DNA from: an uncultured virus (IMG/VR IMGVR_UViG_3300042276_000285)
Taxonomy: Duplodnaviria > Heunggongvirae > Uroviricota > Caudoviricetes
Reading direction: 5' to 3' (one strand)
Virus record (IMG/VR): IMGVR_UViG_3300042276_000285
Length of the DNA: 64,000 nt
Under the pieces are notes generated by a model that ran no database searches, was not told the DNA's origin, and saw only the letters and a program-made list of their open reading frames with translations. Made by a program: the position numbers and the translations under genes. How positions within the stretch are numbered: position 1 is the stretch's first letter; each line of letters opens with the position of its first letter. Shown in pieces: positions 1 through 41,965 of the stretch.

Positions 1-26
1 CTAATTGGTTTTAATAATAGTTAGCG
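1..26 (+). other. attI-like proximal recombination site of array 1 (may extend left of window)
   Basis: CTAATTGGTTTTAATAATAG|TTAGCGG. Nt 1-23 are the exact reverse complement of 41969-41991 at the end of array 2; no hairpin arm precedes this GTT. Confidence 0.7.
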
Positions 27-809
27 GTAATGCGAACCAAACACATCATCCACCGCTATGTTATAATATTCCTTTTCCTTTTCAATCCCAATAAATCTTC
101 TGTTCAAATCCTTAGCACCTAAACAAGTTGTCCCACTACCCATTGTGTTATCAAGTACATACTCGTTTTCTTCACTATATGCAGTAATCAACCACTTTAT
201 TAAATCCAAAGGTTTTTGAGTTGGGTGCTTTTGGTCTTGTCTTCTCCATTGTTGTGGATAGTCAAGTACAGTAATTGGGTGTCTTGTTCCTTTATTGTCA
301 GTCTGCACCCCTTTTATTCCGTACTTCATATTGTTTTGTTTGTTTGGTGTCCATTTACGTTTATACGGCTTTCCTTCCGTAAGTTGTGGTAAGTAATAAC
401 TTGCACTTTCACCAAATACTAATATCATTTCGTGTTTTTTAAGTGGCATATATTTAGCGGTAAAAGGGCTTCCACACTTACTTTTCTTCCAAACCATATC
501 GTATCTAAATAACCTTTCGTTACTAAGCGCAAGTTTAAAAGCAAACATTCCAGCACCAAACAAAACAATATTTCCCTTTGGTTTTAATATGCGTTCATAT
601 TCAACCCACAACTTGTTTAGGTCTAAAACACTATCCCATTTATTTGCAGTCGTTCCATAAGGCAAGTCAGCCAAAATAAGTTGAACAGATTTATTGGGTA
701 TCAAAGGAAGAATATCCATACAATCCGCATTGAACAAAGCACTACCGCCAACATTGGCTATATGTAATGCCTTATTTCCTGATTCGTATTTAAGTTTTTC
801 TATATCCAT
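21..809 (-). CDS. DNA methyltransferase, N6-A/N4-C family (beta class)
   Basis: DLPYG motif IV, HPTQKP, VLDNTMGSGTT SAM-binding motif, FIGIEKE. The start lies in the attC1 loop and the stop is the TAA of the core at 20-23. Confidence 0.9.
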   Translation of the reverse strand: MDIEKLKYESGNKALHIANVGGSALFNADCMDILPLIPNKSVQLILADLPYGTTANKWDSVLDLNKLWVEYERILKPKGNIVLFGAGMFAFKLALSNERLFRYDMVWKKSKCGSPFTAKYMPLKKHEMILVFGESASYYLPQLTEGKPYKRKWTPNKQNNMKYGIKGVQTDNKGTRHPITVLDYPQQWRRQDQKHPTQKPLDLIKWLITAYSEENEYVLDNTMGSGTTCLGAKDLNRRFIGIEKEKEYYNIAVDDVFGSHYR

Positions 810-876
810 AAGCTCCTACTTCGTATTAATTTTTTTGGTAGTTTATCGGCACTACACATAGCCCTATCCGTTATAC
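746..876 (+). repeat. attC-like site 1 (131 bp)
   Basis: CGCCAACattGGCTATATGTAATGCC ... GGCACTACACATAGCCctatccGTTATAC. Confidence 0.85.
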
Positions 877-958
877 CTCATTGCGCCAAAAAAATTGTAA
901 ATAAATTTGAAAGCTAAATACATGGCGCAACGCACGCAAAACAGAAAAAGTTTTGCTG

Positions 959-1952
959 GTATAACACCATGTATATTTTATAGCTGTATCGTTCATTTAT
1001 TAGGCGTTTCTGCGTAAATCCGTTTTAATAATTTTCCCACCGCACATTAGTTTTTTCAAAACTATTTGGATTCAGATATTTCTTTTATGGAGTTTTCCCA
1101 TTTTTCAATTGATTCCTGATAGCTTTTAATGTTTTTTGTTAAGCTATCAATAGACCTATGTTTAAGGTCGTTTAACTTTTCGGCATCTAATTTTATTCCA
1201 TATTTTTCAGCTAATTTTTTATCATCTGCCGATATTTTATCTTTTTCAGACAATATGCTTTCGAGTTTTGCAATGGCTTCTTCTTTAGTATGAAATGGAA
1301 TAAACTTTTTATGTCCGCCGGAATAATCATAATAATCTCCAATAGCATATGTAAATGAACCGTCATCTTTACCAAAAAATGAAATCAATCTCAATCTTTC
1401 CTCATAGCTTTCGTTAAATTCAGCCATATCCATGATTTTCAAATCATATCCAGTAACAAGAATATACTTTATGTCGCCACAGATATAATCAGCCATTAAA
1501 TCAAATGTTTCAGGCTTAATTTTATCAATAGCAGACTTTATATATTCTATTTTATTTCTAAATTCTTTTGTTATCTCTCTATGTCTTTTTTCTAAACGAG
1601 ACATTTCGTCTAATCTTTGATTATACTCTTTTTTATAACGTTCTTCAACTTCTTTAATCCGTTTTTCTTGCCATGAAACAGCGGGAAAATCATGCAAACT
1701 TCTAACAACGAAGTTTTCACCAGAAGGAACTTCCTGATTATTTACTATAAAAACTTCCTGCACTATCTTTTCTTGTGCATTAAGATTTCCAATAACTACT
1801 ACTTTTTTACCGTCTGTTGTGTACTTAAATTCATTCATTGTTTTATATTTTAAAGTTTAAAAAATCCCTCTCAAAAATTATTAAAACTACGTCAGTTTTT
1901 CATTGAACATTCTGCATTAATCACGCTACAAAACATACATTTTCCGTTACCT
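959..1952 (+). repeat. attC-like site 2, loop expanded by a whole gene
   Basis: Arms ATGTATATTTTATAGC / GCTACAAAACATACAT; inner IR TTTTAATAATTTT / AAAATTATTAAAA. Confidence 0.8.
1062..1838 (-). CDS. Hypothetical phage protein (coiled-coil rich) inside attC2 loop
   Basis: 258-aa ORF with A/T-rich leader; no recognised motif. Confidence 0.8.
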   Translation of the reverse strand: MNEFKYTTDGKKVVVIGNLNAQEKIVQEVFIVNNQEVPSGENFVVRSLHDFPAVSWQEKRIKEVEERYKKEYNQRLDEMSRLEKRHREITKEFRNKIEYIKSAIDKIKPETFDLMADYICGDIKYILVTGYDLKIMDMAEFNESYEERLRLISFFGKDDGSFTYAIGDYYDYSGGHKKFIPFHTKEEAIAKLESILSEKDKISADDKKLAEKYGIKLDAEKLNDLKHRSIDSLTKNIKSYQESIEKWENSIKEISESK

Positions 1953-1962
1953 GCAATAAAAA

Positions 1963-2169
1963 TTACTTGTCATCTCTTTTAGGGCAAGTATATCTAACAT
2001 CGCCTTGCAAGTATTTAATCGCATTCCAAAGGTCATCTAATACTATTGTGCCAAGTGGTAGTAAGTTCCCTTTTCCATCTTTTACGCCAGATAGATAAAT
2101 AGCCAAGTCTTTTAAACTATCAGTTCCTACTATAATTTTTTCTTGCATTGGTTTGTTGTTATCTTCCAT
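1963..2169 (-). CDS. Hypothetical cassette protein (MEDNNKP...)
   Basis: ORF fills body 1946-2194; ATG at 2169. Confidence 0.65.
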   Translation of the reverse strand: MEDNNKPMQEKIIVGTDSLKDLAIYLSGVKDGKGNLLPLGTIVLDDLWNAIKYLQGDVRYTCPKRDDK

Positions 2170-2187
2170 AATCGTAATTTTAAAAGC

Positions 2188-2317
2188 AGGTAACAACGTG
2201 TATAAAAAATAGCTGTTAAGTGCTTTGGTTAATGTTATTTTATTTTTGTTTACTCTTTTACTAATTCAATTTTTAAGTGTGTTAAAACGCTACATTTCAT
2301 ACACAAATACGTTGTGC
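2188..2317 (+). repeat. attC-like site 3 (130 bp)
   Basis: GTGTATAAAAAATAGC / GCTACATTTCATACAC arms, GTT at 2311. Confidence 0.8.
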
Positions 2318-2332
2318 TTCATTAAAACGAAA

Positions 2333-3175
2333 GCACAACATGCAATATAAAACATGCTTAGTGTAGTGCTTCGTTTCAATGTTTCTACAAGTTTGACCAT
2401 AATTAAATATTTTTTTGCCCGCCCGCTTTGGTTTTTTCAAAACCATTAGGTTTTCGTAGTTTTGCAACAAATTCAAATCCAGTTCTTACATTGCCGTTTT
2501 GTCCAAACCCATTGCCATTAGTTTGTACTTGTCTTACTTCTTCAAGCATAAAACCTATCTCAATTAAAATTTTAATATGCCAAGAAAAAGCATCCACAAT
2601 CTTTCCTTTTCGTATATGGTTCTTAAAATTTAGTATAAACAACCCATCTTTTTTCAAAACCCGATACGCCTCTTTCCATGCTTTAATGTGTAAATTCCGA
2701 TAATCTTCGCCCCATTGCATTTTACCGCTATTATTATCGTTAAGAGTTCTACCCAACTTATGTGTGTATGTATTCCTACTACTTCCGTCATTAGCATTGT
2801 GGCAATCTGCCATTCTGTTGCCATATGTTGGGCTTGTGCATATTGCATCAAATTCGCAATTCGCAAATTGCAAATCCGTAGCATCTCCAACAATAGTTCC
2901 TTCTTGCATACCCGCCCATTCTGGTTCAATTTCAACACCTATTGTATCAAAAGGCAAGCTATGTATCTTTCCTGTCCCAGCGAACGGGTCTAAAACAGTC
3001 TTGCATCCTTGAAGCATTTCTTCAAATACTGGTAAAAGTGCATCTGTATATTTAGCTGGGTGCTTTGGTTTATTCATAAAAATCCCTCCCTAAAAAATAT
3101 TTAATTATTACCGTTGTGCTTCGCATCATAGTTTCTGCGTAATTGTCGCACGTTTCATATTGCTGTCCGTTATGT
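2333..3175 (+). repeat. attC-like site 4, loop holds a methyltransferase gene
   Basis: GCAATATAAAACATGC / GCACGTTTCATATTGC arms, GTT at 3169. Confidence 0.8.
2403..3077 (-). CDS. DNA methyltransferase (probable N4-C/N6-A)
   Basis: HPAKY, VLDPFAGTG motif I, TSPTY motif IV, YRVLKKDG. Confidence 0.85.
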   Translation of the reverse strand: MNKPKHPAKYTDALLPVFEEMLQGCKTVLDPFAGTGKIHSLPFDTIGVEIEPEWAGMQEGTIVGDATDLQFANCEFDAICTSPTYGNRMADCHNANDGSSRNTYTHKLGRTLNDNNSGKMQWGEDYRNLHIKAWKEAYRVLKKDGLFILNFKNHIRKGKIVDAFSWHIKILIEIGFMLEEVRQVQTNGNGFGQNGNVRTGFEFVAKLRKPNGFEKTKAGGQKNI

Positions 3176-3415
3176 GGCATTTGTTTCAATCTTCCAGTAC
3201 ATACTACAATAATCAGGGTAAAGTGGCTTTTCTTTTGCAGAATGTTCACCGCTAAACACCTTCATTTCTGTATGGTCAAGAAAGTCTTTCATAAAATAAT
3301 GTTCACCACTTTCGTAATCTTTTTCAGTCTTGTAAGCACAAAAACGCCACATAACAACAGGTATAGTTAATGCTCGTTCTTCTGCTAAGTCGTAATATTT
3401 TTTCTTTTTACTCAT
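3170..3415 (-). CDS. Hypothetical protein crossing attC5/body junction
   Basis: Starts in attC5 loop, GTT core read as Val, stop at next core. Confidence 0.6.
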   Translation of the reverse strand: MSKKKKYYDLAEERALTIPVVMWRFCAYKTEKDYESGEHYFMKDFLDHTEMKVFSGEHSAKEKPLYPDYCSMYWKIETNAT

Positions 3416-3479
3416 TTCTATTTTTAATTAAAGTGAATACTTCTATGGTCGCACTAATCATACCTGTGGTACGTTAGCA
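3349..3479 (+). repeat. attC-like site 5 (131 bp)
   Basis: ACAGGTATAGTTAATGC / GCACTAATCATACCTGT arms. Confidence 0.8.
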
Positions 3480-3485
3480 GTAATA

Positions 3486-4247
3486 CTACATTCCATCTCC
3501 GAATGAAGTTATCACATTAAATTCTTTTTCTTTTCTTTTTTCTTCCACCCTCTTTTTTGAATTAGTAAAATGTTCTAATTCTTTTTCAATGCCAATGAAA
3601 TTTCTATCAGTATTTATACAAGCAATTCCTGTTGAACAACTCCCCATCGTATTATCTAGTACCAAGTCATTTTCATCAGTATATGTTTTGATAAGATATT
3701 CCAACAAATCAACAGGTTTTTCAGAACTATGTAATCTACTGTAATTATCTACACACTTAAACTCTAAAATGTTTGTTGGAAATCTTGTTGTTTTACCACC
3801 TTCGTAATCTCTTGTATTTGTTCCGTGATATGCTTTTCCATTACTGCAACCTTTTGCACTATTTGTTGGTATGTGTCCATCTGTTATTTGTGGATAGTAT
3901 TTACCTTTTTTGAAAATACATATTTCTTCAATTTTTCTAATTGGCATTCGTTTAGCGTGAAAGAAATTAGTTCCTTGATTTTTCAACCAATACCAACAAT
4001 ATCTAAAATCCTTTTCATTGCTTGAAATTATTTTGGTTGTAAATGGCTGTGAAGCAAATAAAGCAATCGTTCCGTTTTTCTTTATTATTCGGTTGTATTG
4101 TTTCCAAAGTTCAATCATATCAATATGTTCATCCCATTTTGGTGCTGTCATCCCATAAGGTAAATCACAACAAATAAAATCAATACTTTTATCAGGTATC
4201 AATTTCATTTGTTCTATTGTATCTCCGTATCTTAAATCTATTGTCAT
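3486..4247 (-). CDS. DNA methyltransferase, N6-A/N4-C family (paralogue of 21..809)
   Basis: DLPYG, HSSEKP, VLDNTMGS, FIGIEKE. Confidence 0.9.
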   Translation of the reverse strand: MTIDLRYGDTIEQMKLIPDKSIDFICCDLPYGMTAPKWDEHIDMIELWKQYNRIIKKNGTIALFASQPFTTKIISSNEKDFRYCWYWLKNQGTNFFHAKRMPIRKIEEICIFKKGKYYPQITDGHIPTNSAKGCSNGKAYHGTNTRDYEGGKTTRFPTNILEFKCVDNYSRLHSSEKPVDLLEYLIKTYTDENDLVLDNTMGSCSTGIACINTDRNFIGIEKELEHFTNSKKRVEEKRKEKEFNVITSFGDGM

Positions 4248-4338
4248 AATTTTATTTTAATATTTTACCACCACACAAAAAAGAAAAGAAAAAGGTTCTG
4301 TTCTTCGATTGAGTATTTGTGGTTTAAATCCGTACTAC

Positions 4339-4432
4339 TGCTAACAGCGTATATAAGAAATGGCACATAAACATTTGTGCTAAATTTCAAGTTCGTGCAA
4401 GTGCCACTTCTCATATACGCAAACCGTTAGCG
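4339..4432 (+). repeat. attC-like site 6 (94 bp)
   Basis: GCGTATATAAGAAATGGCAC / GTGCCACTTCTCATATACGC arms. Confidence 0.9.
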
Positions 4433-4433
4433 G

Positions 4434-4847
4434 TCAGTTTTTTACCTTTAAATAATAAGCATACAACTCCTCTGTTGTCAAATGACCAACCGTGTGAATA
4501 TACCAACTACCACCCCTGTATCTAAACCAGCTATCAGCTTGCATTTTTTTAGCAATCCAGTCTGCGAACAAAACCGAACCGCTAACATTGTGCAAATGTA
4601 AACCGCTCGCTTCGTTGTTGCGTTCAGCCTCCGCGCGTTCTAAAAAATCATTCTCAAAATATTTTTTAATCTTTTTGCGCTCAGATGTTTTTAATTTAGT
4701 TATTTGTTTTTTGTGATATCCGGCTGTATAGTATTTGCCATTCCTTTTTACAGAATCGACAGTATATTCTAAAATTTTGTCGTTTATAATAATTGTAACA
4801 TCATGTGTAAATGTTTTTACTCTTTCTTTAAAATAAGTTATTTCCAT
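4434..4847 (-). CDS. Hypothetical fusion protein (attC7 loop + body)
   Basis: Junction peptide GLHLHNVSGS. Confidence 0.7.
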   Translation of the reverse strand: MEITYFKERVKTFTHDVTIIINDKILEYTVDSVKRNGKYYTAGYHKKQITKLKTSERKKIKKYFENDFLERAEAERNNEASGLHLHNVSGSVLFADWIAKKMQADSWFRYRGGSWYIHTVGHLTTEELYAYYLKVKN

Positions 4848-4932
4848 CGCGCGTTAATTTATAGTTTCGTAACTCGTATCAATGTTCATCTGTAATTCAA
4901 TAGCGGTCAGCACTTGCACTTTGCCGTTATAG
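4580..4932 (+). repeat. attC-like site 7
   Basis: GTGCAAATGTAAACCGCT / AGCGGTCAGCACTTGCAC arms. Confidence 0.8.
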
Positions 4933-5442
4933 TGCATTGCCCACCCGCTCAAAAACGAATTGCTTCGGAAGTAAATTTGAGCATAGGTAAATACTTTTAA
5001 ATGGTACGCCCTTTAGTTCTATTCCTGTCTTTATATAATCAATTCGTTTATCAAACACCATTATTTCAAATTTGTGGGTACTTAATAGTCCGTACCGCTT
5101 TTTGCTATCAAATAAACCTGCTTCATTAATCAACATTGCAAATGGTTTATTAAGTCCAAACAACCGTTCTAAAATCGGTTCTCGTAGGCTGTATGGTGGG
5201 TTACTTATAATTAGGTCGTAATTTTGTTCAGGTTCATACTCGAAAAAGTCTTTCCCTTCGTCAATATGTGAGTGTATAACATTATGGCTTTCACTCAGTA
5301 GTTTCACAAAATTACTTTCGTTCGTATCAAACGGACACCAAACGGTTGTTTTCGGTGGTAAATATGGTAAAAGCGGTACTATTGCGTAATCTTTAGTATA
5401 GTACTCATCGGCTTTGTTCTGTTTAAATTGGTGATTTGCCAT
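4927..5442 (-). CDS. Small phage adenine DNA methyltransferase
   Basis: DEYYT, VWCPFD, GKDFF, IISNPPYS motifs. Confidence 0.8.
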   Translation of the reverse strand: MANHQFKQNKADEYYTKDYAIVPLLPYLPPKTTVWCPFDTNESNFVKLLSESHNVIHSHIDEGKDFFEYEPEQNYDLIISNPPYSLREPILERLFGLNKPFAMLINEAGLFDSKKRYGLLSTHKFEIMVFDKRIDYIKTGIELKGVPFKSIYLCSNLLPKQFVFERVGNAL

Positions 5443-5456
5443 CGCTCAAAAACGCA

Positions 5457-5586
5457 CTATAACAATTTATATAAGTAATAGCCGTTGTAGTGCAATTATT
5501 AGGGCTTATTACTCTGTTTAACATTTGCAATTATTTCAAAGTTCGTGTTTCAAATCGGCTACTACTCATATAAGTATCCGTTATAA
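5457..5586 (+). repeat. attC-like site 8 (130 bp)
   Basis: TTATATAAGTAATAGCCG / CGGCTACTACTCATATAA arms. Confidence 0.85.
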
Positions 5587-5592
5587 AACATT

Positions 5593-5727
5593 TTAAGACA
5601 CATCATATGTCGAAAAATATTCACCATCTATATAAACTATTGCTTCATTTTCACGGTACTTTATTTTAATGTTTGAGCCGTAATTTAACTTTTCTCTGAG
5701 TAATTTAAGTAAGTCTTCTAAATACAT
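5593..5727 (-). CDS. Small hypothetical cassette protein (44 aa, MYLEDLLK...)
   Basis: Translated by hand; fills body 5580-5746. Confidence 0.55.
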   Translation of the reverse strand: MYLEDLLKLLREKLNYGSNIKIKYRENEAIVYIDGEYFSTYDVS

Positions 5728-5739
5728 AATAAAAACGTT

Positions 5740-5835
5740 TTATAACAAAAGCTATAAACAAAAAGCCTCTGTTTGGTTTGTACTTTTAATTATATTTTAT
5801 GGTTCGGCTTTCAGTTCATAGCCAAGCCGTTAGCG
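5740..5835 (+). repeat. attC-like site 9 (96 bp)
   Basis: GCTATAAACAAAAAGCC / GGCTTTCAGTTCATAGC arms. Confidence 0.85.
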
Positions 5836-6123
5836 TTCAGTTTGCCGATTATTGCAAATTTTCCAAATTGTTCCGTTCAGACATTTTCCATTGTATTGGT
5901 CTAAGCATGGTCTGTAATGGCAAACCGCATCGCTAACATGCGGTTTATTGCAGTTGCTCAGCTCGTCCGAACTTTTTGCCAACGCGCGGGGAAGCCATTC
6001 AAAACTTATAACCGAATCAACTCTTTTTTGTCCCTGTTTTTCGTACCAGTCAAATAGCTGGTCTTCCTCGGTTTGCGTTTCTGGTGTAATATGTGGCACA
6101 TTATCTGTAAATTGTATTTTCAT
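5830..6123 (-). CDS. Hypothetical fusion protein with Cys-rich C-terminus
   Basis: Junction peptide NCNKPHVSDA. Confidence 0.65.
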   Translation of the reverse strand: MKIQFTDNVPHITPETQTEEDQLFDWYEKQGQKRVDSVISFEWLPRALAKSSDELSNCNKPHVSDAVCHYRPCLDQYNGKCLNGTIWKICNNRQTER

Positions 6124-6212
6124 CCTACGCTCGTATTTTTATGGTTATTTACTCGTATCAACTTATTCGGTTATTGTAGCGGCAACCGACAACAAACCGC
6201 CAGCCGTTAGCA
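5931..6212 (+). repeat. attC-like site 10
   Basis: GCGGTTTATTGCAGTTGC / GCAACCGACAACAAACCGC arms. Confidence 0.8.
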
Positions 6213-6345
6213 ATAATAAAAACTAACAGTATCAATATGTACCGCCTATTTTGTCACTGCCGCAATTTGCACAGCTTGTAAAATTAAAATGTTCTATATT
6301 ATATGGATTCCATTTGTATCCACATTCCATACATTTACAATAGTC

Positions 6346-6519
6346 TTATTTAAAATCGTTTTTACTATTGCTAACATTATGCAAATTTAAATTTTTAATT
6401 TTCCATTCTGCATATTCGTTCATTGCGTTCAATATCGTGGCTTCCTTGCCTATATCTTCCAAACAAGGTTCCCAACTTCTCCAAATTTCAAGCATTTTTA
6501 AAGTGTCGTTTTTACTCAT
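6346..6519 (-). CDS. Small fusion ORF (57 aa) followed in frame by a stop-separated Zn-ribbon module
   Basis: MSKNDTLKM...NLNLHNVSNSKNDFK* then DYCKCMECG...CANCGSD to TGA at 6232. Confidence 0.5.
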   Translation of the reverse strand: MSKNDTLKMLEIWRSWEPCLEDIGKEATILNAMNEYAEWKIKNLNLHNVSNSKNDFK

Positions 6520-6569
6520 AATATTTCAATTTAAAATTAAAAATCAAAACTTGCACTTGTCCGTTAGCA
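6369..6569 (+). repeat. attC-like site 11
   Basis: TGCAAATTTAAATTTTTAATT / AATTAAAAATCAAAACTTGCA arms. Confidence 0.75.
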
Positions 6570-6578
6570 ATCAGTTTG

Positions 6579-6971
6579 CTAACCATCTATTCCACATTTA
6601 ATACACTTTAATGCAAATGGTATGTCAGATTCTTCGTTTGTTGTCCACTCGTGTTCGCAAACCGCCGTTTCGTCATTTATTTGCGCTTCGTGCTTAACGC
6701 CACATTCGCACTCATAAATAACTTTTGTAATCGGGGCTAATTTGTTGCATAAAGGGCAAATAAATTCCTTCACTTTGCTAACACCATGCAAAGGTAATGC
6801 TGCGCTCTCGTCCAAACTGTTTCCCGATGCTCGTTCTAATTCAAGAATATAATTAGCCAAATATTCTCTTTCATTAATCGTTAGAATATCAGCTTTTGTT
6901 TTGCCAATTAAAGCACTCACAATCATTTTTCGTTCCAATCCAAGTTTATTCAATTTGTTAATGTAATCCAT
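6579..6971 (-). CDS. Hypothetical fusion protein with Zn-ribbon C-terminus
   Basis: Junction peptide DESAALPLHGVS; CxxC pairs. Confidence 0.7.
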   Translation of the reverse strand: MDYINKLNKLGLERKMIVSALIGKTKADILTINEREYLANYILELERASGNSLDESAALPLHGVSKVKEFICPLCNKLAPITKVIYECECGVKHEAQINDETAVCEHEWTTNEESDIPFALKCIKCGIDG

Positions 6972-7057
6972 CGCTCGTATTATTTAATCGTTATTTACTC
7001 GTATCTACTTTCGTGCAGCTTTCAGGGCAGCACATACCCTTGCATTTACCGTTAGCA
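6776..7057 (+). repeat. attC-like site 12 (same shell as 35599-35965)
   Basis: ATGCAAAGGTAATGCTGC / GCAGCACATACCCTTGCAT arms. Confidence 0.9.
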
Positions 7058-7063
7058 GTAATG

Positions 7064-7306
7064 CTATTTGTGCTTATCATAAAATTCAATTAAATGATAT
7101 ATGCACTTCGCATCTCCCGTACTGCTAAACATATACTTTTGCCTCAAATATTCAACCATTTCATCAAGACTTAATGTGTTCCAATCAAACATAGGTGAAG
7201 CACTACTGCTAACACCATGTAAAAAACATTGCTCGGCAAGTTTCTTAGCATCTGGCTTTGGTTCACCTATTATAATCACTTTTGGCTTTTTGTCTTTATC
7301 TTTCAT
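7064..7306 (-). CDS. Hypothetical fusion protein
   Basis: Junction peptide CFLHGVSSSA. Confidence 0.65.
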   Translation of the reverse strand: MKDKDKKPKVIIIGEPKPDAKKLAEQCFLHGVSSSASPMFDWNTLSLDEMVEYLRQKYMFSSTGDAKCIYHLIEFYDKHK

Positions 7307-7339
7307 ATCGCAACGATTTTTTACATTTCAACGTTGTAT
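7207..7339 (+). repeat. attC-like site 13 (133 bp)
   Basis: ATGTAAAAAACATTGC / GCAACGATTTTTTACAT arms. Confidence 0.8.
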
Positions 7340-7491
7340 TTCACGGTAAGACCGAGAGGTTCAGAATCTACTTTAAAAATTCTTGTTTTAAAGTAGTGAA
7401 CCGAAGGGATTACGCGACGGTAGGAGCGAGTGAAATACAACGGCTTCGTGTAAACTTGAAATATGTGACCACTTTAACCGGAGCGAGCGCA

Positions 7492-7768
7492 ACACAACAA
7501 AAGTGTAAACGTAATTTCAAACGCGAGCTTAATTTCATTTCAAGTTCCTGTATTGCTCCCAGCCTTTAAAATTGAAATCTCTTTATTCATTCGCTCAATG
7601 CGTACATCGTATTTTTTAACATCGGTCATATAACCTAAATTTTCGTGTACTTTTCTCAATTCAAGTAACCTATCTCTATAAATTTCAAATGTCTTTAATA
7701 TGTCCATGATATTTCAATTTTAAATTCTTTCTCAATCCAGAAACTACGTTTACACGAAGCCGTTAGGC
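7492..7768 (+). repeat. attC-like site 14
   Basis: GTGTAAACGTAATTTC / GAAACTACGTTTACAC arms. Confidence 0.75.
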
Positions 7769-8053
7769 TTCATTTACCTCCGCACTCATAAATAATTCCC
7801 ATGCCTTTTGGTAGTTCTTATGCCACATTTTTTGTAACTCAATATCTTTATCACTCCAATTGTGTTTAGGCTGTAATTCGGCATAAGAATCATCATCCCA
7901 ACCCATTACAACGCCATACATAAAAGCTATCATCTTATCTTCGCTGCAATCTCTGGAGGTAAATGCGAATGTTTCGTGCAACCTTTGTAATGGGTTTGTT
8001 GGCGTTTCCATCTCATCTCTTGTTTGCCATTTTAATTCTGTATTATCTTTCAT
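7763..8053 (-). CDS. Hypothetical cassette protein (MKDNTELK...)
   Basis: ORF between CCWCCGCAC direct repeats; stop in core. Confidence 0.7.
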   Translation of the reverse strand: MKDNTELKWQTRDEMETPTNPLQRLHETFAFTSRDCSEDKMIAFMYGVVMGWDDDSYAELQPKHNWSDKDIELQKMWHKNYQKAWELFMSAEVNEA

Positions 8054-8086
8054 AATATTGTTTTTATCCCACCGCACAAAACGAAA

Positions 8087-8216
8087 GCCTAACAATGTAT
8101 AAAAATAATAGGCGGTTACGTGCGTGTAGGTAGTTTATAATCATTTAATTAATTGTATTCTGTTTGCGAAGTTCAGCGTTTCAAATCGCCTACTATTCTT
8201 ATACTCACCGTTACCG
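8087..8216 (+). repeat. attC-like site 15 (130 bp, related to site 8)
   Basis: GTATAAAAATAATAGGCG / CGCCTACTATTCTTATAC arms. Confidence 0.85.
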
Positions 8217-8286
8217 TGCATGCTAAATTTTAATTTAGTGCCGTGCTTAATCAGAAAGTGTTTAACCTTTAAGAAAAAGCACGACA

Positions 8287-8635
8287 CGGTAACAATGTGT
8301 AACTACAAAATGCTCGTAGCTCGTAAAACCATTTAGCCATCACACAACTCTGTTACCAGTAAGTCTTATCTTACCATCATCTTTTGGCTGTGTTTCCATT
8401 ACAATAAATTCACTTCCGTCTGAATTGTGTCTGTGCAATATTACAATTGCATCTAATTCAACTTTCCCATAAACAGAATCACCATAGTCTATGGTAACTT
8501 TTCTTGTTTTTGTTTTTCTTGTAGGCATATTTATTTATTTAGTTGCCCTCCGCGCTGTACTTTGGGCTGTTAATTCTCGTATCAAAGTCGCTGCAAATTT
8601 GAAGCAGCATTCAGTAGTTACACCAACCGTTAACG
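8287..8635 (+). repeat. attC-like site 16
   Basis: GTGTAACTACAAAATGCT / AGCATTCAGTAGTTACAC arms. Confidence 0.85.
8340..8528 (-). CDS. Small hypothetical protein in attC16 loop
   Basis: 62-aa ORF flanked by CCATCACAC / CCTCCGCGC. Confidence 0.6.
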   Translation of the reverse strand: MPTRKTKTRKVTIDYGDSVYGKVELDAIVILHRHNSDGSEFIVMETQPKDDGKIRLTGNRVV

Positions 8636-8977
8636 CACATGCTGAGAATCGTATTCATCAGCAGCTTTGCGTAATTCGTTATATTCTATAACAGGTACAG
8701 TAAACTTTTTGAAACGGTGTGCAATCTTTGAACCATCTACATATTCAGCAAGGTTTCCGCAGCTTTCAACAAAAGCACGTGCGTTAACACAAGCTAAATG
8801 CAAACCGCCTTCGGTATCTGAATCGGGCTTGCCAACGCTCGCAATAAATTTGGCTGTTAACTCTTTATTTCTGTAAAGAAATTCAGTTATAACTTGTGAG
8901 TTAGTCGTGTCATTGTTAACCTTCCAATCGGTTTTTTTATCAATGAAGGTTAGTAGTTCATTTAAAAATTTTTCCAT
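8630..8977 (-). CDS. Hypothetical fusion protein
   Basis: Junction peptide GGLHLACVNARA. Confidence 0.7.
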   Translation of the reverse strand: MEKFLNELLTFIDKKTDWKVNNDTTNSQVITEFLYRNKELTAKFIASVGKPDSDTEGGLHLACVNARAFVESCGNLAEYVDGSKIAHRFKKFTVPVIEYNELRKAADEYDSQHVR

Positions 8978-9061
8978 CGCTTCGGTATTTTAAAGTTATT
9001 TGTTATCTGATAATTCATCGGTTATTCAAAAGGCGGTCAGCACTTAGCTAAACCGTTAGCA
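8782..9061 (+). repeat. attC-like site 17 (family of site 7)
   Basis: AGCTAAATGCAAACCGCCTT / AAGGCGGTCAGCACTTAGCT arms. Confidence 0.85.
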
Positions 9062-9113
9062 ACAATGCCTTTAAATAATTGCCAACACTCAAAAGCCTTA
9101 CACAAGGCACAGT

Positions 9114-9537
9114 TGCTAACACGTTGTATAAAACATGCTTGCGGTAGTGCCTCGTGCTAGCTTCGGTGCTTAATTGGAGCAAAATAATAATGCCCCACGC
9201 ACAACAACTACTTTTTAATTTCAGGCCAACTCCACTCGCGCTCTCCTGTACCCAAAACAGCAGAAGTTACCCAAAGGTTTTCTTCTCCATCAAGTAGTAC
9301 TTTAAGGTTTACGCACTCGTCACCCCACACAGCAGTAATAACCGCAGGTGCATCTTCTTGGTAATTGTTCATCTTGTCCTTTTGCTCTTCATCACAATGA
9401 TAAATCACAATTCTACCTATTGTTGGTGTCATAACTAAATATGGGTTTTACAAAGCCCGCCCAGGGCATTATTATTTTTTCTCTCGTGTGAAGGTCAGTG
9501 CAAATTTGCCGTACTTGCCATATTGCCACCGTTAGCT
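9114..9537 (+). repeat. attC-like site 18 with non-matching (hybrid) outer arms
   Basis: Both boxes present; inner IR AAAATAATAATGCC / GGCATTATTATTTT; outer arms do not pair. Confidence 0.6.
9208..9432 (-). CDS. Small phage protein (MTPTIGRIVIY...WSWP)
   Basis: PTIGRIV / PAVIT / VNLKV / W-WP pattern typical of a common small phage protein. Confidence 0.75.
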   Translation of the reverse strand: MTPTIGRIVIYHCDEEQKDKMNNYQEDAPAVITAVWGDECVNLKVLLDGEENLWVTSAVLGTGEREWSWPEIKK

Positions 9538-10288
9538 ACAAAGCCAACAACTGTTCGTACTTTTTTAAACATTTACGGCAAATTAAGCGTGTGTCTATTT
9601 TTGTCGGTTGCTTATCCAACGCACGAAATGGAATATTGCCGTCAGGGTGTGTATATTTTGAATCATCTTTTGTTTTATCATAGGTTGGTAAGCCAGAAAG
9701 CGATAATGTATTATAGCCACCATTTTTTACTGAATATCCTGTCGTTTTATGATCTGGTTCGCAAAGAACTTTTCCATCAACGGCAATATGACGTTTTTTA
9801 GTAGCCCAACACAAAGCAACCTTGCGTTCTGCGTTTGGCTCAGTAGCTAACACATTACATAGGTCATTTGCTTTGCTATTCGGATGTTTGGTACTTTTAT
9901 TCATCGTATCTGTTTTTTGAAGTTTTGTAAATTTATTCAGGGGCAAACGCCCCATGTAATCGGCACGGTACCATTCATTCGCCCCACCGCACATCGTAAT
10001 ATCATTGTAACCACCAATTCCAACAACTTTTGCATCATCCCAATTACTTATCCCGTATTTAAACTCTCGCATTTCTGTGTAGGGTTTTCCTTTAAATCTA
10101 ACATCGGGCTTTGGCATCTTATCAAACATGAAGAAACCATCACAGCAATGCAACTGTTTTTCGCTGTAATAAAATACGTGCGTAGCCCTATTCTTTCTAA
10201 ATGGGTTACTCATAAACGCCCAACACTGCAACGAAATGGTAACAATGTGTAGGCGTAATGCCTTCGTTTTTTTAATTAAAGTTTTCAT
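9536..10288 (-). CDS. Read-through fusion of two cassettes
   Basis: Spans attC20, body 20, attC19 and body 19; core mutation at 9968 removes the internal TAA. Confidence 0.55.
   Translation of the reverse strand: MKTLIKKTKALRLHIVTISLQCWAFMSNPFRKNRATHVFYYSEKQLHCCDGFFMFDKMPKPDVRFKGKPYTEMREFKYGISNWDDAKVVGIGGYNDITMCGGANEWYRADYMGRLPLNKFTKLQKTDTMNKSTKHPNSKANDLCNVLATEPNAERKVALCWATKKRHIAVDGKVLCEPDHKTTGYSVKNGGYNTLSLSGLPTYDKTKDDSKYTHPDGNIPFRALDKQPTKIDTRLICRKCLKKYEQLLAL
9845..9973 (+). repeat. attC-like site 19 with mutated core (GGT)
   Basis: ATTACATAGGTCATTTGC / GCAAACGCCCCATGTAAT arms; GGTACCATT where GTTACCATT is expected. Confidence 0.8.
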
Positions 10289-10354
10289 ATACTTTTAGTT
10301 TTTAAGTTTTAAAACGAGTCAGTGGTGGCACTCCGCCTACACCAACCGTTATAG
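10237..10354 (+). repeat. attC-like site 20 (118 bp)
   Basis: GTGTAGGCGTAATGCC / GGCACTCCGCCTACAC arms. Confidence 0.85.
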
Positions 10355-10372
10355 TGCATTTCCATCCGCACT

Positions 10373-18672: not shown

Positions 18673-18701
18673 ATTTTTATATGCTTAACATGCAGTAAAA
18701 A

Positions 18702-35965: not shown

Positions 35966-36120
35966 CGTCGTTGCTTAAAAAATACATGACTTTGATAATT
36001 GATTGTGAAGGAGTGGACTTCCTTTATAAAATAGATACAATGCAAGATACACAGGAATGGACAGACGAAGAGGTTGAAGCTTTAACTGAACTTTCAGAAT
36101 CAATTAGCAATGCGCGCTAA
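35683..36120 (+). CDS. Lar-like (restriction alleviation) Zn-binding domain fused to a cassette body
   Basis: LLPCPFCGGE ... IECTKC ... AIEAWN. Confidence 0.7.
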   Translation: MEKITYYTNSGEFIADKLLPCPFCGGEPEFITIGNYHTKSRKAQIECTKCHVRRTTGTIRNDLEWCGRKAIEAWNARWQDSSDESAALPLHDVSASLLKKYMTLIIDCEGVDFLYKIDTMQDTQEWTDEEVEALTELSESISNAR

Positions 36121-36233
36121 CGGTTTGTACAAGTTGCGTTTTAAAACTGACGATTATTTGAAATACTAAAGTAATATTTTTAAAAGCGAAGCGGGGGCGT
36201 TTTCTCCTGCATAAATTTAATACATACAGCAAA

Positions 36234-36929
36234 ATGAAAAATTTAAAAGAAATGACAGAACAAGAAATTCTTGCGTTAACAGATGAAGAAATTACGCTTA
36301 GAATTAAGCTGAAAAAGGCAGAAGAAGGAATTAAATTAGTTCCAAAACCCAAAATGCCTTCCTATTTTGATATTGAAGAACCTGACAAAACAGTTTATTA
36401 TTGCGAGTTATTCGGTGATGATTTGTGTTTTGAAAGCATGGAAGAACTTACTAAATTGATTCAATTGATTTCTGGTAGCGAAACAAAATGTTCGGTTACC
36501 TATGACTACAATAAAGCCGGGTCTGAATATTCTTATATCACGTCAAAAATGAAAACACGTGGTTACAGCTATAAAGAATGGAGTGTGACTGGTTCGAAAC
36601 GTGTTTATTCAATCGAAAAATACAATGCTTGTGTTGATATGATTGCTCAGAACAAAAAAATGAAAGAGCAATATGAAAAAGAATTAAAAGAATATGAAGC
36701 TGCTATTTCGGAAGCCAAATGGATTGAAGATGAAATAAACGACCGTGTTCGCGAAGTTCGTGACAAATATTGGAAACTAAATGAATATTGCCGTAAATTT
36801 AAACTTGATTATTTGCCACTTGCAGACGAAAATGAAGACGTGGCAATGAAGTTTATGGATAAAGCATATTCGTTAACTGACGAACAAAAGGAATACGTTC
36901 TATCAAATTATGCAGGATTAAATTCCTAA
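36234..36929 (+). CDS. Hypothetical protein inside attC loop
   Basis: 231-aa ORF. Confidence 0.8.
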   Translation: MKNLKEMTEQEILALTDEEITLRIKLKKAEEGIKLVPKPKMPSYFDIEEPDKTVYYCELFGDDLCFESMEELTKLIQLISGSETKCSVTYDYNKAGSEYSYITSKMKTRGYSYKEWSVTGSKRVYSIEKYNACVDMIAQNKKMKEQYEKELKEYEAAISEAKWIEDEINDRVREVRDKYWKLNEYCRKFKLDYLPLADENEDVAMKFMDKAYSLTDEQKEYVLSNYAGLNS

Positions 36930-37168
36930 ACAGCTTTGCTGTATGCGGGAGGGGCTTTTAAAAATATGGTTAATTAAGCTCCACCGTTGATTAGATGCAC
37001 GGCAAAAATGCAATTTGTACTTTGTTATAAACTGTAGCCGTGCTTCTTCTAATCTTTTTAAACATACAGTTTTCACGGCTATTGTTTATAACGGTTGGTG
37101 TTTGTTTAGTTTGCCAACCGGATTGCAGAGAATTTTAATTGAAATACTAAAATATCAAATTACGCGCG

Positions 37169-37444
37169 ATGGAAGATTACGAACAAGATTATGACGAATG
37201 TTGCCCGAAGTGCGAACATTCACCGACACACTACCGCAATTGCAGCGAATTGCACTGCGATGAAGGTTATATAGATGAAAATGACCTTGACCCGATAGAT
37301 TTCATGGAAGGTGAAAGTTACATTATGTGCAATGAGTGTTACGGCACTGGTATTGAAGAATGGTGTCCAAAATGTGGTTACGATATTAGCGCACATAAGT
37401 ACGTTGTGCGGCTGCGAGAAGCTAAATTGAAAAGCGCAAATTAA
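37169..37444 (+). CDS. Cys-rich zinc-finger protein inside attC loop
   Basis: CPKC, CNECYGTG, CPKCG. Confidence 0.7.
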   Translation: MEDYEQDYDECCPKCEHSPTHYRNCSELHCDEGYIDENDLDPIDFMEGESYIMCNECYGTGIEEWCPKCGYDISAHKYVVRLREAKLKSAN

Positions 37445-37671
37445 ATAAACACATTGTTACCATGCCGAAGGGTACGTTTTGCGCTTACGTACCTTTCGGA
37501 TTGCTTCAAATTTTCAAGCGCAAAATGCATGGTAACGGGAACTTGTATGAAGCGGTGGCGATTAGGAGCTACTACCTATCGAACCGCACAAAATTAACTT
37601 AGTAGCTAAGTGGTTAAAAATAAGCACATAACGCCACTGATTTATACAAAATGTTATGCTGCGTTTTTGTT

Positions 37672-37947
37672 ATGATTTACAAATTAACTTTTGATGACGG
37701 CAGAATTGATTGGTGTACCGCCAAAAACCAATTACACCTATTAAAATCTTACGATAAAGATTATGATTTGCCATTGCAGGAAATTGAAAATATCGAAGAA
37801 ATAGAGGAAGAACAAGCCAAAACAATAATGGTTACAAATACTGAATTTGACGAAGATAACCCAGATGATATGCCGGAACAATTATCAATTTGGGAATTGG
37901 CAGTTGGAGAAGATTTTGAAATAATCGCTTCTACGGAGTTCGTTTAA
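37672..37947 (+). CDS. Acidic hypothetical cassette protein
   Basis: Fills body 37653-37959. Confidence 0.7.
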   Translation: MIYKLTFDDGRIDWCTAKNQLHLLKSYDKDYDLPLQEIENIEEIEEEQAKTIMVTNTEFDEDNPDDMPEQLSIWELAVGEDFEIIASTEFV

Positions 37948-38073
37948 ATGCAGCATAACGGTCGAGTGTATGAGTAGTGTGGCTTTGCACATACTTTCTT
38001 TCGACTTACAGATAAACTTATTTAGCCACATTACTTATACACTTTGTTATAGGTATGTAAAAATTTATGGATT

Positions 38074-38247
38074 ATGAAAGATAAAGAAATTAAAGACTTA
38101 CAAAAGTTTAGGGCAAAGGAAGAGTTGAAGATAAAACTACTTCAAGTTATTAACAAATATAAATCAAAGGAAGAACCACATATAATGTTATCAAATGATG
38201 ATATTGTAAATGTTTTATCTTCAATGATAGTTAGAAGAACGGAATAA
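38074..38247 (+). CDS. Small hypothetical cassette protein (57 aa, MKDKEIKD...)
   Basis: Translated by hand; fills body 38046-38265. Confidence 0.55.
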   Translation: MKDKEIKDLQKFRAKEELKIKLLQVINKYKSKEEPHIMLSNDDIVNVLSSMIVRRTE

Positions 38248-38342
38248 ATTTTTATTACCTATAACGGAAAGCATAAGTTTTGACCGCAGTTGAATAACCG
38301 AAAAAATCTAATACGAGTATAAACAGTTTAAAATTACGTGTG

Positions 38343-38684
38343 ATGGGAAAAGAATTACATATTATAAGACCAAAAGGAACAACTATTGGAGAATATGAAG
38401 TAACAAAAATTGGATTTTTGATGCCGAATGGAGAGGAAGTTATCATTCCTTTTAATAAAGGCACGAAGATAAAAGACATACTGAGCGAAGGCAATCCGTT
38501 GCTCGAAGTTGGTAGCGGTTTAAATTTATGCTGTGTTAGCAGCCGTTTATCCTTAGATGAAATAGAAAAAGAATCAAAAGAGTGGGCTGAAAGTAGGAGT
38601 GTTGGCAACAAAGAGCAGGACGATGAATGTGCTTATGACTTTAAATGTGGAATGATAACCGCAAGAAATAAACTTAGCAAATAA
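38343..38684 (+). CDS. Hypothetical fusion protein
   Basis: Junction peptide GLNLCCVSSR. Confidence 0.65.
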   Translation: MGKELHIIRPKGTTIGEYEVTKIGFLMPNGEEVIIPFNKGTKIKDILSEGNPLLEVGSGLNLCCVSSRLSLDEIEKESKEWAESRSVGNKEQDDECAYDFKCGMITARNKLSK

Positions 38685-38735
38685 AATGGCTGCTAACGGT
38701 AACTTGTAAGTTGTCGGTTTTTATTAACGGATTAA

Positions 38736-39119
38736 ATGAACGAAATTATGGAAAAAGTATTTAGAGTTGCAGACATTAGAAAATTTGAGCAACAAGTTAC
38801 AAAAGGAGATATAAGCTATTCAAGAATGGTTGAATTAATGAACGAAATGGCGCATACGCACTATGTAGTTAATAAAAACTGCAATTTACAAAATGTTAAC
38901 CGCCGTTATTCCCCAGAAGAAGGAAAAGTACGAGGCGGATCAACAATTAAATGGGAAACTTTTACGGACGAATCATATCACAATATGGTTGCTGTTAGAC
39001 CAGTTGGAGACACCGACTTTAATTCACCGAGGTTATTTCATTTCATATTCCCAGAAAATGCCGAAAAATTTAAACTACTTGCTGAAATGGCTTTTGTTGC
39101 TAAGCCTAATGGCGGTTAA
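38736..39119 (+). CDS. Hypothetical fusion protein
   Basis: Junction peptide NCNLQNVNRR; stop in core. Confidence 0.65.
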   Translation: MNEIMEKVFRVADIRKFEQQVTKGDISYSRMVELMNEMAHTHYVVNKNCNLQNVNRRYSPEEGKVRGGSTIKWETFTDESYHNMVAVRPVGDTDFNSPRLFHFIFPENAEKFKLLAEMAFVAKPNGG

Positions 39120-39204
39120 CGGTAAGCATAAGAATAGTGGCGACAATAACGCACGAAAGTTAATAAAAGAGATACAGTAATATTTTATTTTTAGGGATGG
39201 TTTT

Positions 39205-39867
39205 ATGTTTTATTATTACGGAAGAAAAAAACAAATAGCCAAGTATTATCCTGCTCCAAACTGCGATACTATTATTGAGCCGTTTGCAGGTGCAGCATCT
39301 TACTCAATGTTTGGCGACAATTGGGAAAAGAATATAATTCTCATCGAAAAGGATGAGAAAGTTGCCAATATTTGGGATTGGCTTATTAATAGCGCAACTG
39401 TCGAGGATATTAAGAATTTACCTGACTTAAAAGTTGGTGAAAGAAGTTCTGATTTTTTACATATTGTACATGCTGCAACAAAAATGGCTTTCCACTACAA
39501 AACGATTAAGGTAACACCTGTACTGGAACGAAATTGGGAAATCAGCCGCAGAATATTTGCTGAAAACCTTCACAAAATAAAACATTGGCAGATTATTAAT
39601 GACGATTATTCAAGTGCGCCAAATATTGAAGCTACTTGGTTTATCGACCCCCCGTACAAAGGCAATGCAGGAATGGGGTACAGGCATAGCAGTAGATTGT
39701 TGGACTATGATAAACTCGCCGATTGGACATTGAAACGCAAAGGCGAAATTATTTTTTGTGAGGGTAAAAACGGTGATTATTTACCATTTAAACCCTTATT
39801 AAATTTGAAAGGTGTGGCTGGGAAAGTAAGTAAAGAAGTTATTTTTTACAAATCCAAATTGCTTTGA
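39205..39867 (+). CDS. Dam/D12-like DNA adenine methyltransferase
   Basis: YYGRK, IEPFAGAA, FIDPPY. Confidence 0.85.
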   Translation: MFYYYGRKKQIAKYYPAPNCDTIIEPFAGAASYSMFGDNWEKNIILIEKDEKVANIWDWLINSATVEDIKNLPDLKVGERSSDFLHIVHAATKMAFHYKTIKVTPVLERNWEISRRIFAENLHKIKHWQIINDDYSSAPNIEATWFIDPPYKGNAGMGYRHSSRLLDYDKLADWTLKRKGEIIFCEGKNGDYLPFKPLLNLKGVAGKVSKEVIFYKSKLL

Positions 39868-40117
39868 AAAAGCAAAAGTGCGAGGGCAAAATAAAATATG
39901 GAATTAGCGCAGAATGTTGATTAAATGTACCACACCAAGCCATTATTTTTATGCATTGTTATGCACCGTGCTTTTTGTAACTTTGAAACACGGACGTAAC
40001 AACAAAGATGCATTTATGAATAATAGCATGGTGCATAACGGTTGCAACAAGTGGCGTTGCTGCCAGACAGTTGATTAAATGAACGGACGTTAAAAAAATA
40101 ATTTTAGGGAGGGTTTT

Positions 40118-40834: not shown

Positions 40835-41137
40835 AAAAACAGTACGTGGGTCGGCAAATTATTTTTTGATTTTATGCAGAAACTTAGCTATGAAATACCG
40901 AAGCAATGCCATTTGTTGCGTGTTAGCGTGCCAACGGGAACGGTTTTGCTAAACTGGTTTTCATGTTTGCTTATAAGTTTCAAGCAAAACTGCACGCTAA
41001 CGGCTATTGTAAGAATAGTAGCCGTAAAATACGCAGAAAAGTTGATTGAAATACAATAGTTTAATAACCGATAATAGCTCTAAAAAGACCACATAGCAGG
41101 CTATTATTTTTACAAATTGTTATGTGGCGTTATTATT

Positions 41138-41959: not shown

Positions 41960-41965
41960 CATTAC

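Follow-up and report, generated by a model that had tools for sequence, protein, structure and literature searches.

Classical integrons are built from sites with AAC/GTT cores, R and L boxes and an unpaired spacer, cross over at G|TT, and carry arrays that grow at a fixed attachment site; their cassettes are promoterless genes read from one promoter at attI, and each cassette starts with bases complementary to the inverse core that it carries. Clusters of attC sites lacking integron-integrases (CALINs) are known from virulent phages, including Polaribacter phage P12002L, which carries two methyltransferases and, according to the text of that report, two sites only, 'with divergent directions' (Qi et al. 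2023, PMC9892861). One P12002L attC was recombined with attI1 by IntI1 as the bottom strand, and the top strand gave no recombinants (PMC9892861). For Bacteroidetes, the IntegronFinder 2.0 preprint mentions that only In0 elements were detected earlier, and in Muminvirus phages methyltransferase content has been tied to plating efficiency, in a paper from whose main text the word 'integrase' is absent (Nilsson et al. 2020, PMC7077304). Here we describe two arrays of attC-type cassettes in a 64,000-nt stretch of DNA from an uncultured virus of the Caudoviricetes (IMG/VR IMGVR_UViG_3300042276_000285; this whole stretch is called the window below), in which the cassette genes are reversed relative to the classical layout and in part lie within the loops of the recombination hairpins.

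Recombination sites and the strand of the cassette genes

It had originally been predicted, from the letters alone, that the cassette open reading frames (ORFs) of both arrays run antisense to the attC top strand, and a count of non-nested ATG ORFs of at least 50 amino acids bears this out, 32 of the 35 lying on the strand of the site model (see below) and 3 on the opposite one. Eight ORFs terminate on the TAA of the next core, and all eight stops that had been named for this (21, 3170, 4927, 5830, 7763, 8630, 36120 and 39119) proved to be the TAA of an nnnTAAC core. The classical arrangement, with the ORF in the body, mostly on the top strand and upstream of attC, is not what these cassettes show.

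On the strand that folds, which is also the gene-sense strand, a site is made up of nnnnnTAAC-G, then a bulge of 4-5 nt and a stem of 16-27 bp, followed by the loop, the return stem and T-GTTAnnnnn; the consensus in the gene direction is AATGnnnnnTAAC-GG(n3), a 16-27 bp arm, the loop, the return arm and (n2)T-GTTAnnnnnCATT. We aligned 26 compact sites from the window, eight related Flavobacterium phages and Polaribacter phage P12002L, and all of them fit one structure of 21 consensus pairs, 14 of which show compensatory changes. TAAC and GTTA are invariant or nearly so across the alignment, as expected of the outer inverted repeat (R box), and past an unpaired spacer there is a second paired region that is conserved in structure and not in sequence, as expected of an L box. 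The 4-5 nt bulge directly after TAACG is conserved and the G33.T124 pair is found in 26 of 26 sites; where classical attC has extrahelical bases that mark the bottom strand, what is conserved here is this 5'-side bulge and the invariant G.T. A covariance model made from the compact sites gave 16 full-length matches in the window, all on the coding strand of the array concerned and none on the opposite strand, including five outside the training set (Table 1).

The 25 window sites used below were listed by a first scan, which rewards G.T pairs and has an arm threshold of 26; a plain core-plus-7-bp scan was dropped as too noisy. Twelve of these sites are 94-131 nt long and the other 13 are 201-994 nt, beyond the classical range of about 57-141 bp. 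Since the first scan rewards G.T pairs, the strand bias was counted again on the same site list with G.T and A.C scored symmetrically. Over 55 distinct sites the coding strand has 860 Watson-Crick, 131 G.T and 32 A.C pairs (in the window alone, 61 G.T against 8 A.C), with a binomial p of 2e-15, where the G.T to A.C ratio expected from base composition is estimated at about 1.15 with the skews of the window. When the sites were folded as single-stranded DNA with DNA parameters, a check proposed along with the original prediction, the coding strand was the more stable one in all but one of the 25 window sites (24), and for other phages this was so in 27 of the 30 sites folded.

The sites form a chain. 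Of 23 adjacent pairs of sites, 18 have all five variable bases of the one site's 3' core complementary to those of the 5' core that follows; among 506 non-adjacent pairs such a full match is seen in 3. Three of the five exceptions (10354>9061, 7768>6569 and 38259>39114) span 573-1176 nt in which intermediate sites were skipped in the list. Such complementarity between neighbours is the footprint that circular cassettes would leave.

Cassette boundaries and polarity

Two records close to the window (G001 and L011) match it with 100% identity and thus offer no polymorphism, so cassette boundaries were studied in relatives. Nine Muminvirus/Lillamyvirus Flavobacterium siphophages have flanks that are 97-100% identical and differ in cassette content; comparing all pairs gave 87 breakpoint clusters, which reduce to 38 distinct contexts. 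The (A/C)CGTTA core on the non-coding strand accounts for 29 of these; another 5 lie up to 25 nt upstream of that core, and the remaining 4 fall on the TAACA core. For example, mumin6-3 reads TGATAACGTTAACCGC where mumin9-1 has a 506-bp insertion inside AACGTTA, and filifjonk9-1 has two more insertions that behave in the same way. Six different first cassettes abut one fixed sequence, ATATTGTAG followed by TTA, at the downstream end in the gene direction.

The window itself follows the same rule, both of its arrays ending in the identical 20 nt CTAATTGGTTTTAATAATAG, then TTA and different cassettes, with one of the two copies inverted (Table 1). A relative that is 99.8% identical to the window, L050, has yet another cassette against this attI-like 20-mer; its array 2 agrees with that of the window as far as the core CATGGTAAC, then GG, at 37530-37538, has other cassettes in place of 37538 to 41962, and agrees once more from the attI-like end on. 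The window's array-1 cassette 5835>5576 is found in array 2 of L050 with 99.2% identity, the homology being bounded by TAAC|G on both sides. Gain and loss of cassette-sized units with the crossover at G|TT are therefore seen both in the siphophage indels and in L050. In other metagenomes, the lone clean core-to-core joint, 7047>9528, is weak (side 22, one run, 90% likeness), and many other joints are short-sided or off the cores.

These boundaries show that the exchanged unit is core, hairpin, gene and core in the gene direction, and that the crossover core is the one at the hairpin's 5' end on the coding strand: with exchange at TAA|C of the first core, a cassette extends from one such core to the next. 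Classically, the crossover marks the 3' end of attC as read on the top strand; by that definition the coding strand here is the bottom strand, and with the folding strand being the coding strand, each cassette has its hairpin first and its gene second. It is thus on where the cassettes begin and end (29 of 38 contexts, plus L050) that the antisense reading of the genes is based, and in this sense too the original prediction holds. We infer that the shared 20-mer is the insertion site.

Could the coding strand instead be the classical top strand, in ordinary cassettes with the gene first and attC second? In the gene direction each ORF is indeed followed by a hairpin, as in any array, the AAC...GTT motif looks alike on both strands, and the longer spacer is on the 5' arm of the coding strand, resembling a classical top strand. 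However, the indel units are bounded by the core before the hairpin (29 plus 5 contexts against 4, and also mumin9-1/mumin6-3 and L050), the variable array end and the fixed attI-like sequence are downstream of the genes, and the strand of the site model relative to the ORFs is opposite in phages and bacteria (see below), which makes an error in the polarity call very improbable.

Genes inside the hairpin loops

Whole genes had been predicted between the two arms of single sites in eight cases. In seven of them (Table 1) the arms pair specifically, with scores of 33-43, and the claim stands; in the eighth, 9208-9432, both cores are within the chain and the arms remain below the threshold of 26. 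A further small ORF inside a site is 7540-7707. Altogether, eight ORFs are wholly within a site, and seven more have their ATG in the loop and exit through the 3' arm and core. Three of the genes in loops encode methyltransferases according to Pfam (2403-3077, 39205-39867 and 40118-40834).

The specificity of the arms was evaluated by scoring the 36 nt after each 5' core against the 36 nt before each 3' core in all combinations of the 25 window sites. The 600 non-cognate pairs had a mean score of 12.2 (standard deviation 4.3, maximum 32); the cognate pairs scored 27-47 and topped every non-cognate partner in 24 of the 25 sites, among them all five long sites, with loops of 0.84-1 kb. The long-range pairings are thus better than shuffled ones, and hidden internal sites that would split the long sites into ordinary ones were not seen either, as the covariance model found no full site within the long loops and just two weak partial matches to loop positions.

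Where the gene is in the loop, the cassette body comes to just 8-80 nt; such cassettes have in common a leader that ends in TAATAnnTTTTTAGGGAGGGnTTTTATG and a tail that contains GTTTTGAAAAAAC. The loop motif CGCAGAAA occurs twice in long sites, after the 5' arm and before the 3' arm, and once in compact sites. The leaders at 3078-3111, 1839-1900, 39170-39204 and 40090-40117 end in GGAGGG 5-7 nt before the ATG, a strong Shine-Dalgarno-like box of a kind that is unusual for Bacteroidota genes. The conserved tail, with its small palindrome GTTTTGAAAAAAC, is at 2382-2453, 1032-1075, 39855-39900 and 40820-40870, and belongs to the coding region of some cassettes (C-terminus of 2403-3077), whereas in others it comes after the stop (1062-1838). 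Inspection of the loops for promoter motifs, by eye only, gave nothing convincing.

In four other metagenomes, contigs retain the leader and tail of the 2403-3077 cassette and omit or replace the ORF body, with joints at 2413>3074 and 2443>3074 (3 runs each, sides 32-39 nt); contigs from other metagenome runs also diverge at 3111, a position in the second copy of the 5' core (Table 1). A leader and tail that are kept while the ORF is swapped hint at a second mode of gene exchange within a conserved frame. These joints are also the main support for an alternative in which the compact sites are real and the long ones are relics, the gene with its leader and tail having been pasted into an ordinary loop by some other event that left the distant arms as inactive leftovers. 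The doubling of CGCAGAAA in long sites, the second 5' core inside the loop at 3111-3123, the variation of the 2403-3077 ORF at its own ends and the bacterial sites described below, nearly all of 120-126 nt, would fit such a history. Against it, all five long sites keep arms of 16-19 bp with 2-3 G.T and no A.C pairs and score as high as compact sites, their cores still fit the chain, being complementary in 5/5 or 4/5 positions, the pattern is present in both arrays and in eight ORFs, and the loops conceal no full site. We consider it less likely than not that the long sites are such secondary constructs.

Chromosomal counterparts in Flavobacteriaceae

The site model also matched 12 places in one Flavobacteriaceae metagenome-assembled genome (MAG), and at E <= 1e-5 it matched 55 of 61 sampled Flavobacteriaceae genomes, with up to 29 matches each, in a survey that scored just 52 candidates per genome. 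The bacterial sites match the same model at 50-92 bits, are about 120-126 nt long, and their arrays have the same chain of complementary cores. In 27 of 28 bacterial bodies the longest ORF is opposite to the model strand, so that the gene comes before its attC as in classical arrays. The inversion of polarity is therefore visible with a single model, between phage (32/35) and bacteria (27/28), without reliance on remembered attC rules.

At six loci the array begins 1-2 kb from a recombinase of 394-395 amino acids in fixed relative orientation. Against NF040815 (XerA / integron integrase) this protein reached 216 bits, where the cut-off is 220; against TIGR02249 it reached 204 bits, in two stretches, where the cut-off is 265; and on both XerC and XerD it scored about 180 bits. 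Its best solved relatives are, in order, archaeal XerA, IntI4 and XerD. The six recombinase genes (6319-7506 in L037, 3733-4917 in L044 and four more) encode about 395 amino acids with an N-terminal extension of about 100, beside arrays of up to 12 or more sites. The Flavobacteriaceae recombinase and arrays look like an unrecognised integron family. In the regions after the bacterial integrase genes of two loci, no obvious motif in common with the phage 20-mer was seen. A four-site bacterial array without a nearby recombinase (L036, G002:C3, 9460-13973) lies between a Mrp/NUBPL-type Fe-S gene and sucA, and its cassettes encode an HxlR regulator, a zinc alcohol dehydrogenase, a LuxR-like protein and a hydrolase.

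The bacterial arrays also bear on whether the stems act mainly in RNA. They would then pair 5' and 3' ends over a long range, or form local hairpins, so as to insulate, process or stabilise each cistron of a polycistronic transcript, and the shuffling would be a by-product of recombination between repeated regulatory modules, as in the promoter and stem-loop cassettes of T4-type phages. Several features of the phage would agree with this: most of the G.U-compatible pairs are on the coding strand (131 against 32), the stems enclose whole ORFs, leader and tail are conserved among the long-loop cassettes, with GGAGGG ahead of the ATG in the leader, and a twister ribozyme (14526-14592) is found between two cistrons on the same strand. 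However, the same asymmetric site lies antisense to the ORFs in 27 of 28 bacterial bodies, so the strand bias belongs to the DNA site and not to the mRNA. Moreover, the junctions fall precisely in a core of 7 nt, a length that does not suffice for homologous exchange, the variable bases of neighbouring cores are complementary as in circular cassettes, and a related P12002L site was recombined by IntI1 (PMC9892861). A role mainly in RNA is thus improbable.

The phage genome and exchange between lineages

By its Pfam hits the window belongs to a crAss-like phage; apart from a muzzle-protein domain (Table 1), it encodes a polyvalent protein of 2616 aa with LPD14, a DnaG-type primase, DUF3127 and a Lar-like protein. 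Genes are on the minus strand up to about 21 kb and on the plus strand beyond, and the metagenome runs containing the window sequence carry the label wastewater. The cargo of the two arrays is mostly DNA methyltransferases and small genes of no assigned function.

Cassette content is shared across phage lineages. The body of a methyltransferase cassette (3471-4346) is 86% identical to Muminvirus mymlan6-1, the homology ending at ACGTTAGC and GCTAACA, and the compact site at 2178-2315 is 91% identical to Polaribacter phage P12002L. The phages that share these parts are unrelated in structural genes, the window being a crAss-like podophage and the others siphophages with different annotated structural genes. 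Vibrio phage helene 12B3, which has a homologue of the 2403-3077 methyltransferase, was set aside as it showed, by eye, no such cores. A contig search with the methyltransferase 3486-4247 returned mostly unrelated MAG fragments.

In two more distant relatives from IMG/VR (L051 and L052, with 65-66% identity in ORF 42109-42846), 18.7 kb around the homologue of that ORF held no site at E <= 0.01, so the arrays are not fixed at this place in the wider phage group. A solitary model match in the central region of the window, distant from both arrays, is at 24440-24577 on the plus strand (30 bits, E 0.0015), between ORFs 23724-24344 and 24587-24760.

In an Rfam scan of the window the sole match to pass its gathering score was a type-P3 twister ribozyme at 14526-14592 on the minus strand, which is the coding strand there (41.8 bits; gathering score 39.9), and relaxed thresholds over 1-21000 added nothing credible. 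The ribozyme sits between ORFs 14593-14886 and 14224-14502, outside the attC-type arrays. Contigs of three metagenome runs omit exactly the 92-aa ORF beside it (joint 14210>14511, sides 38-52), and one run omits 12781>14159; both are gene-sized indels without attC-type cores. At 18439-19606, on the minus strand, three neighbouring ORFs each have a weak-to-moderate Cpn10 (GroES) match and may be a split or repeated co-chaperonin gene.

Table 1. Coordinates of features in the window, for positions 1 to 3177 and for the two arrays
Feature	Position	Strand	Remarks
attI-like end of array 1	1..20	-	CTAATTGGTTTTAATAATAG, then TTA of last cassette
N6/N4 DNA methyltransferase	21..809	-	Pfam PF01555, 7.9e-35; ATG in loop of site 876>746; stop is TAA of last core
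Cassette 1	871..1946	-	1076 nt; bounded by G870/T871 and G1946/T1947, boundary rule from related-phage breakpoints; ORF-less 80-nt body (871-956) and hairpin with 940-nt loop; core complementarity GTTATACC/GGTATAAC
3' arm (gene sense), site 1952>959	969..984	-	16 bp with 1925-1940, 2 G.T on coding strand; score 33, best non-cognate 16-19
5' arm (gene sense), site 1952>959	1925..1940	-	pairs with 969-984 across 940 nt
258-aa ORF wholly in loop	1062..1838	-	tblastn: phage phi80, Pseudomonas, Pantoea phages, E to 5e-34
Cassette 2	1947..2311	-	365 nt; 68-aa ORF (1963-2169) and compact 130-nt site 2186-2320 (model match 2182-2323, 91.3 bits)
Cassette 3	2312..3169	-	858 nt; mini-body with 8-nt loop (2312-2339) and hairpin with 790-nt loop; arms 2342-2357 / 3148-3163, score 35, non-cognate 15-18; core GTTGTGCTT/AAGCACAAC, complementary 5/5
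224-aa DNA methyltransferase wholly in loop	2403..3077	-	Pfam PF01555, 2.2e-10
Second copy of 5' core	3111..3123	-	AAGCACAAC, then GG; within loop, 35 nt upstream of methyltransferase ATG, without adjacent paired arm
5' core of site 3175>2333	3167..3177	-	its TAA is the stop of ORF 3170-3415
Array 1	1..10360 (approx.)	-	at least 18 sites, one orientation; no integrase
Array 2	36108..41991 (approx.)	+	at least 9 sites; no integrase; ends in attI-like 20-mer 41972-41991 (inverted copy)
Muzzle-protein C-terminal domain	42843-46427		Pfam
Model match outside training set	4333-4438		
Model match outside training set	5734-5841		
Model match outside training set	7201-7345		
Model match outside training set	9839-9979		
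Model match outside training set	37947-38058		
Long site	1952>959		arm score 33
Long site	3175>2333		arm score 35
Long site	36115>37030		arm score 34
Long site	39114>39964		arm score 35
Long site	40033>40928		arm score 43
Confirmed in-loop gene	1062-1838		258-aa ORF, as above
Confirmed in-loop gene	2403-3077		methyltransferase, as above
Confirmed in-loop gene	8340-8528		
Confirmed in-loop gene	36234-36929		
Confirmed in-loop gene	37169-37444		
Confirmed in-loop gene	39205-39867		methyltransferase
Confirmed in-loop gene	40118-40834		methyltransferase

Interpretation

Taken together, the phage arrays are probably integron-type gene cassettes, a CALIN made of an attC family typical of Flavobacteriaceae, with the gene polarity reversed relative to the classical layout. 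Under such a scheme a host Xer/IntI-like tyrosine recombinase would act during infection on the coding strand, folded as single-stranded DNA, excise cassettes as circles and insert them at the attI-like end, the fixed sequence that new cassettes abut at the downstream end in the gene direction. The signals for expression would come with each cassette, in its loop or leader, promoters possibly being in the loops, and the arrays could in this way shuffle anti-restriction methyltransferases among unrelated phages. Transcription would run toward the attI-like end, as had been proposed originally; the ORF direction and the shared 20-nt ends fit this.

A number of observations weigh against this interpretation. 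A complete integron would have intI beside the array, and here an attI-like 20-mer is found at both array ends and no integrase: none of 79 window ORFs matched the tyrosine recombinase family PF00589, nor did the nearest public record (G001), and the annotations of mumin9-1 and P12002L list no recombinase of Xer/IntI-like kind. On the bacterial side, of 301 Flavobacteriaceae genomes searched, 0 had a TIGR02249 match above the curated cut-off, the recombinase next to the arrays fails to reach the cut-off of either integrase model, the six loci form a biased sample, selected since integrase-like and site matches shared a contig, and the crossover polarity of the bacterial arrays is an assumption. 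The extra unpaired bases are on the 5' arm of the folding strand; those of classical attC, the extrahelical bases, are on the 3' arm. Since four breakpoint contexts are at the other core, TAACA, and two cross-phage homologies stop at TAACA on one side, the exchange is not strictly one-sided. Finally, the 2403-3077 ORF varies at its own ends and not at the cores in other metagenomes, and that the long-loop sites (0.8-1 kb) are still active in recombination is something we infer.

A broader picture can be put forward tentatively, as somewhat short of an even chance: Flavobacteriaceae phages may run a polarity-reversed integron serviced by host Xer/IntI-like integrases, in which the attC hairpin serves as a 5' expression module that can house a whole gene, so that anti-restriction methyltransferases and other early genes would be traded ready to express among unrelated lineages, namely crAss-like podophages and Muminvirus and Incheonvirus siphophages; the bacterial arrays, present in most Flavobacteriaceae genomes and next to a recombinase that scores below the integrase cut-offs, would then represent a large family of integrons which standard tools either overlook or record as integrase-only. 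The logic of integron recombination is seen here in lytic phages, with the genes reversed and some of them placed within the hairpin that recombines. Should the long-loop sites prove active, attC would be less constrained than assumed in two respects, namely in size and in having to leave the ORF outside. The scheme could also explain the exchange of methyltransferase sets among unrelated phages of one host family, and it points to a widespread Flavobacteriaceae integron family beyond the curated integrase and attC models. The original prediction that standard attC models would largely overlook such sites agrees with the earlier detection of In0 elements only in Bacteroidetes.

Comparison with known systems

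The phage CALINs of Qi et al. 2023 (PMC9892861) are alike in being phage-borne attC clusters with DNA methyltransferases, and the P12002L site is 91% identical to one in the window; the text of that report differs in describing neither reversed polarity nor in-loop genes, attI-like ends or a host counterpart. In the literature we found no account of reversed-polarity phage cassettes or of genes within attC loops.

In phages of the CTX-phi type, folded single-stranded phage DNA is integrated at the dif site in a Xer-dependent manner. The likeness is that here, too, a host Xer-family recombinase would act on a one-strand hairpin, the array-linked recombinase being nearest to XerA among solved structures; the difference is that a whole phage genome enters dif there, whereas the arrays here consist of small gene cassettes. 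T4-type phages have mobile regulatory cassettes made of a promoter and a stem-loop, which are shuffled by homologous exchange between longer conserved modules. Both systems have repeated stem-loop modules flanking small variable early-type genes, and modular shuffling, but the junctions here fall within 7 nt of core sequence, and the family to which the sites belong is bacterial and attC-like.

The chromosomal arrays of Flavobacteriaceae share the covariance model and the chain of complementary cores with the phage arrays. They differ in having sites of about 123 nt after opposite-strand ORFs, and many of them adjoin a Xer/IntI-like recombinase, neither of which holds for the phage arrays. With classical cassettes the window has in common the AAC/GTT cores, the paired boxes with a spacer, the G|TT crossover, the complementary cassette start and the fixed growth site. 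It differs from classical attC in its long near-perfect stems, the 4-5 nt bulge, the invariant G.T and the absence of an integrase in cis, and from classical cassettes in having the ORF on the folding strand, the hairpin before the gene, and ORF starts or whole ORFs within loops of up to 940 nt.

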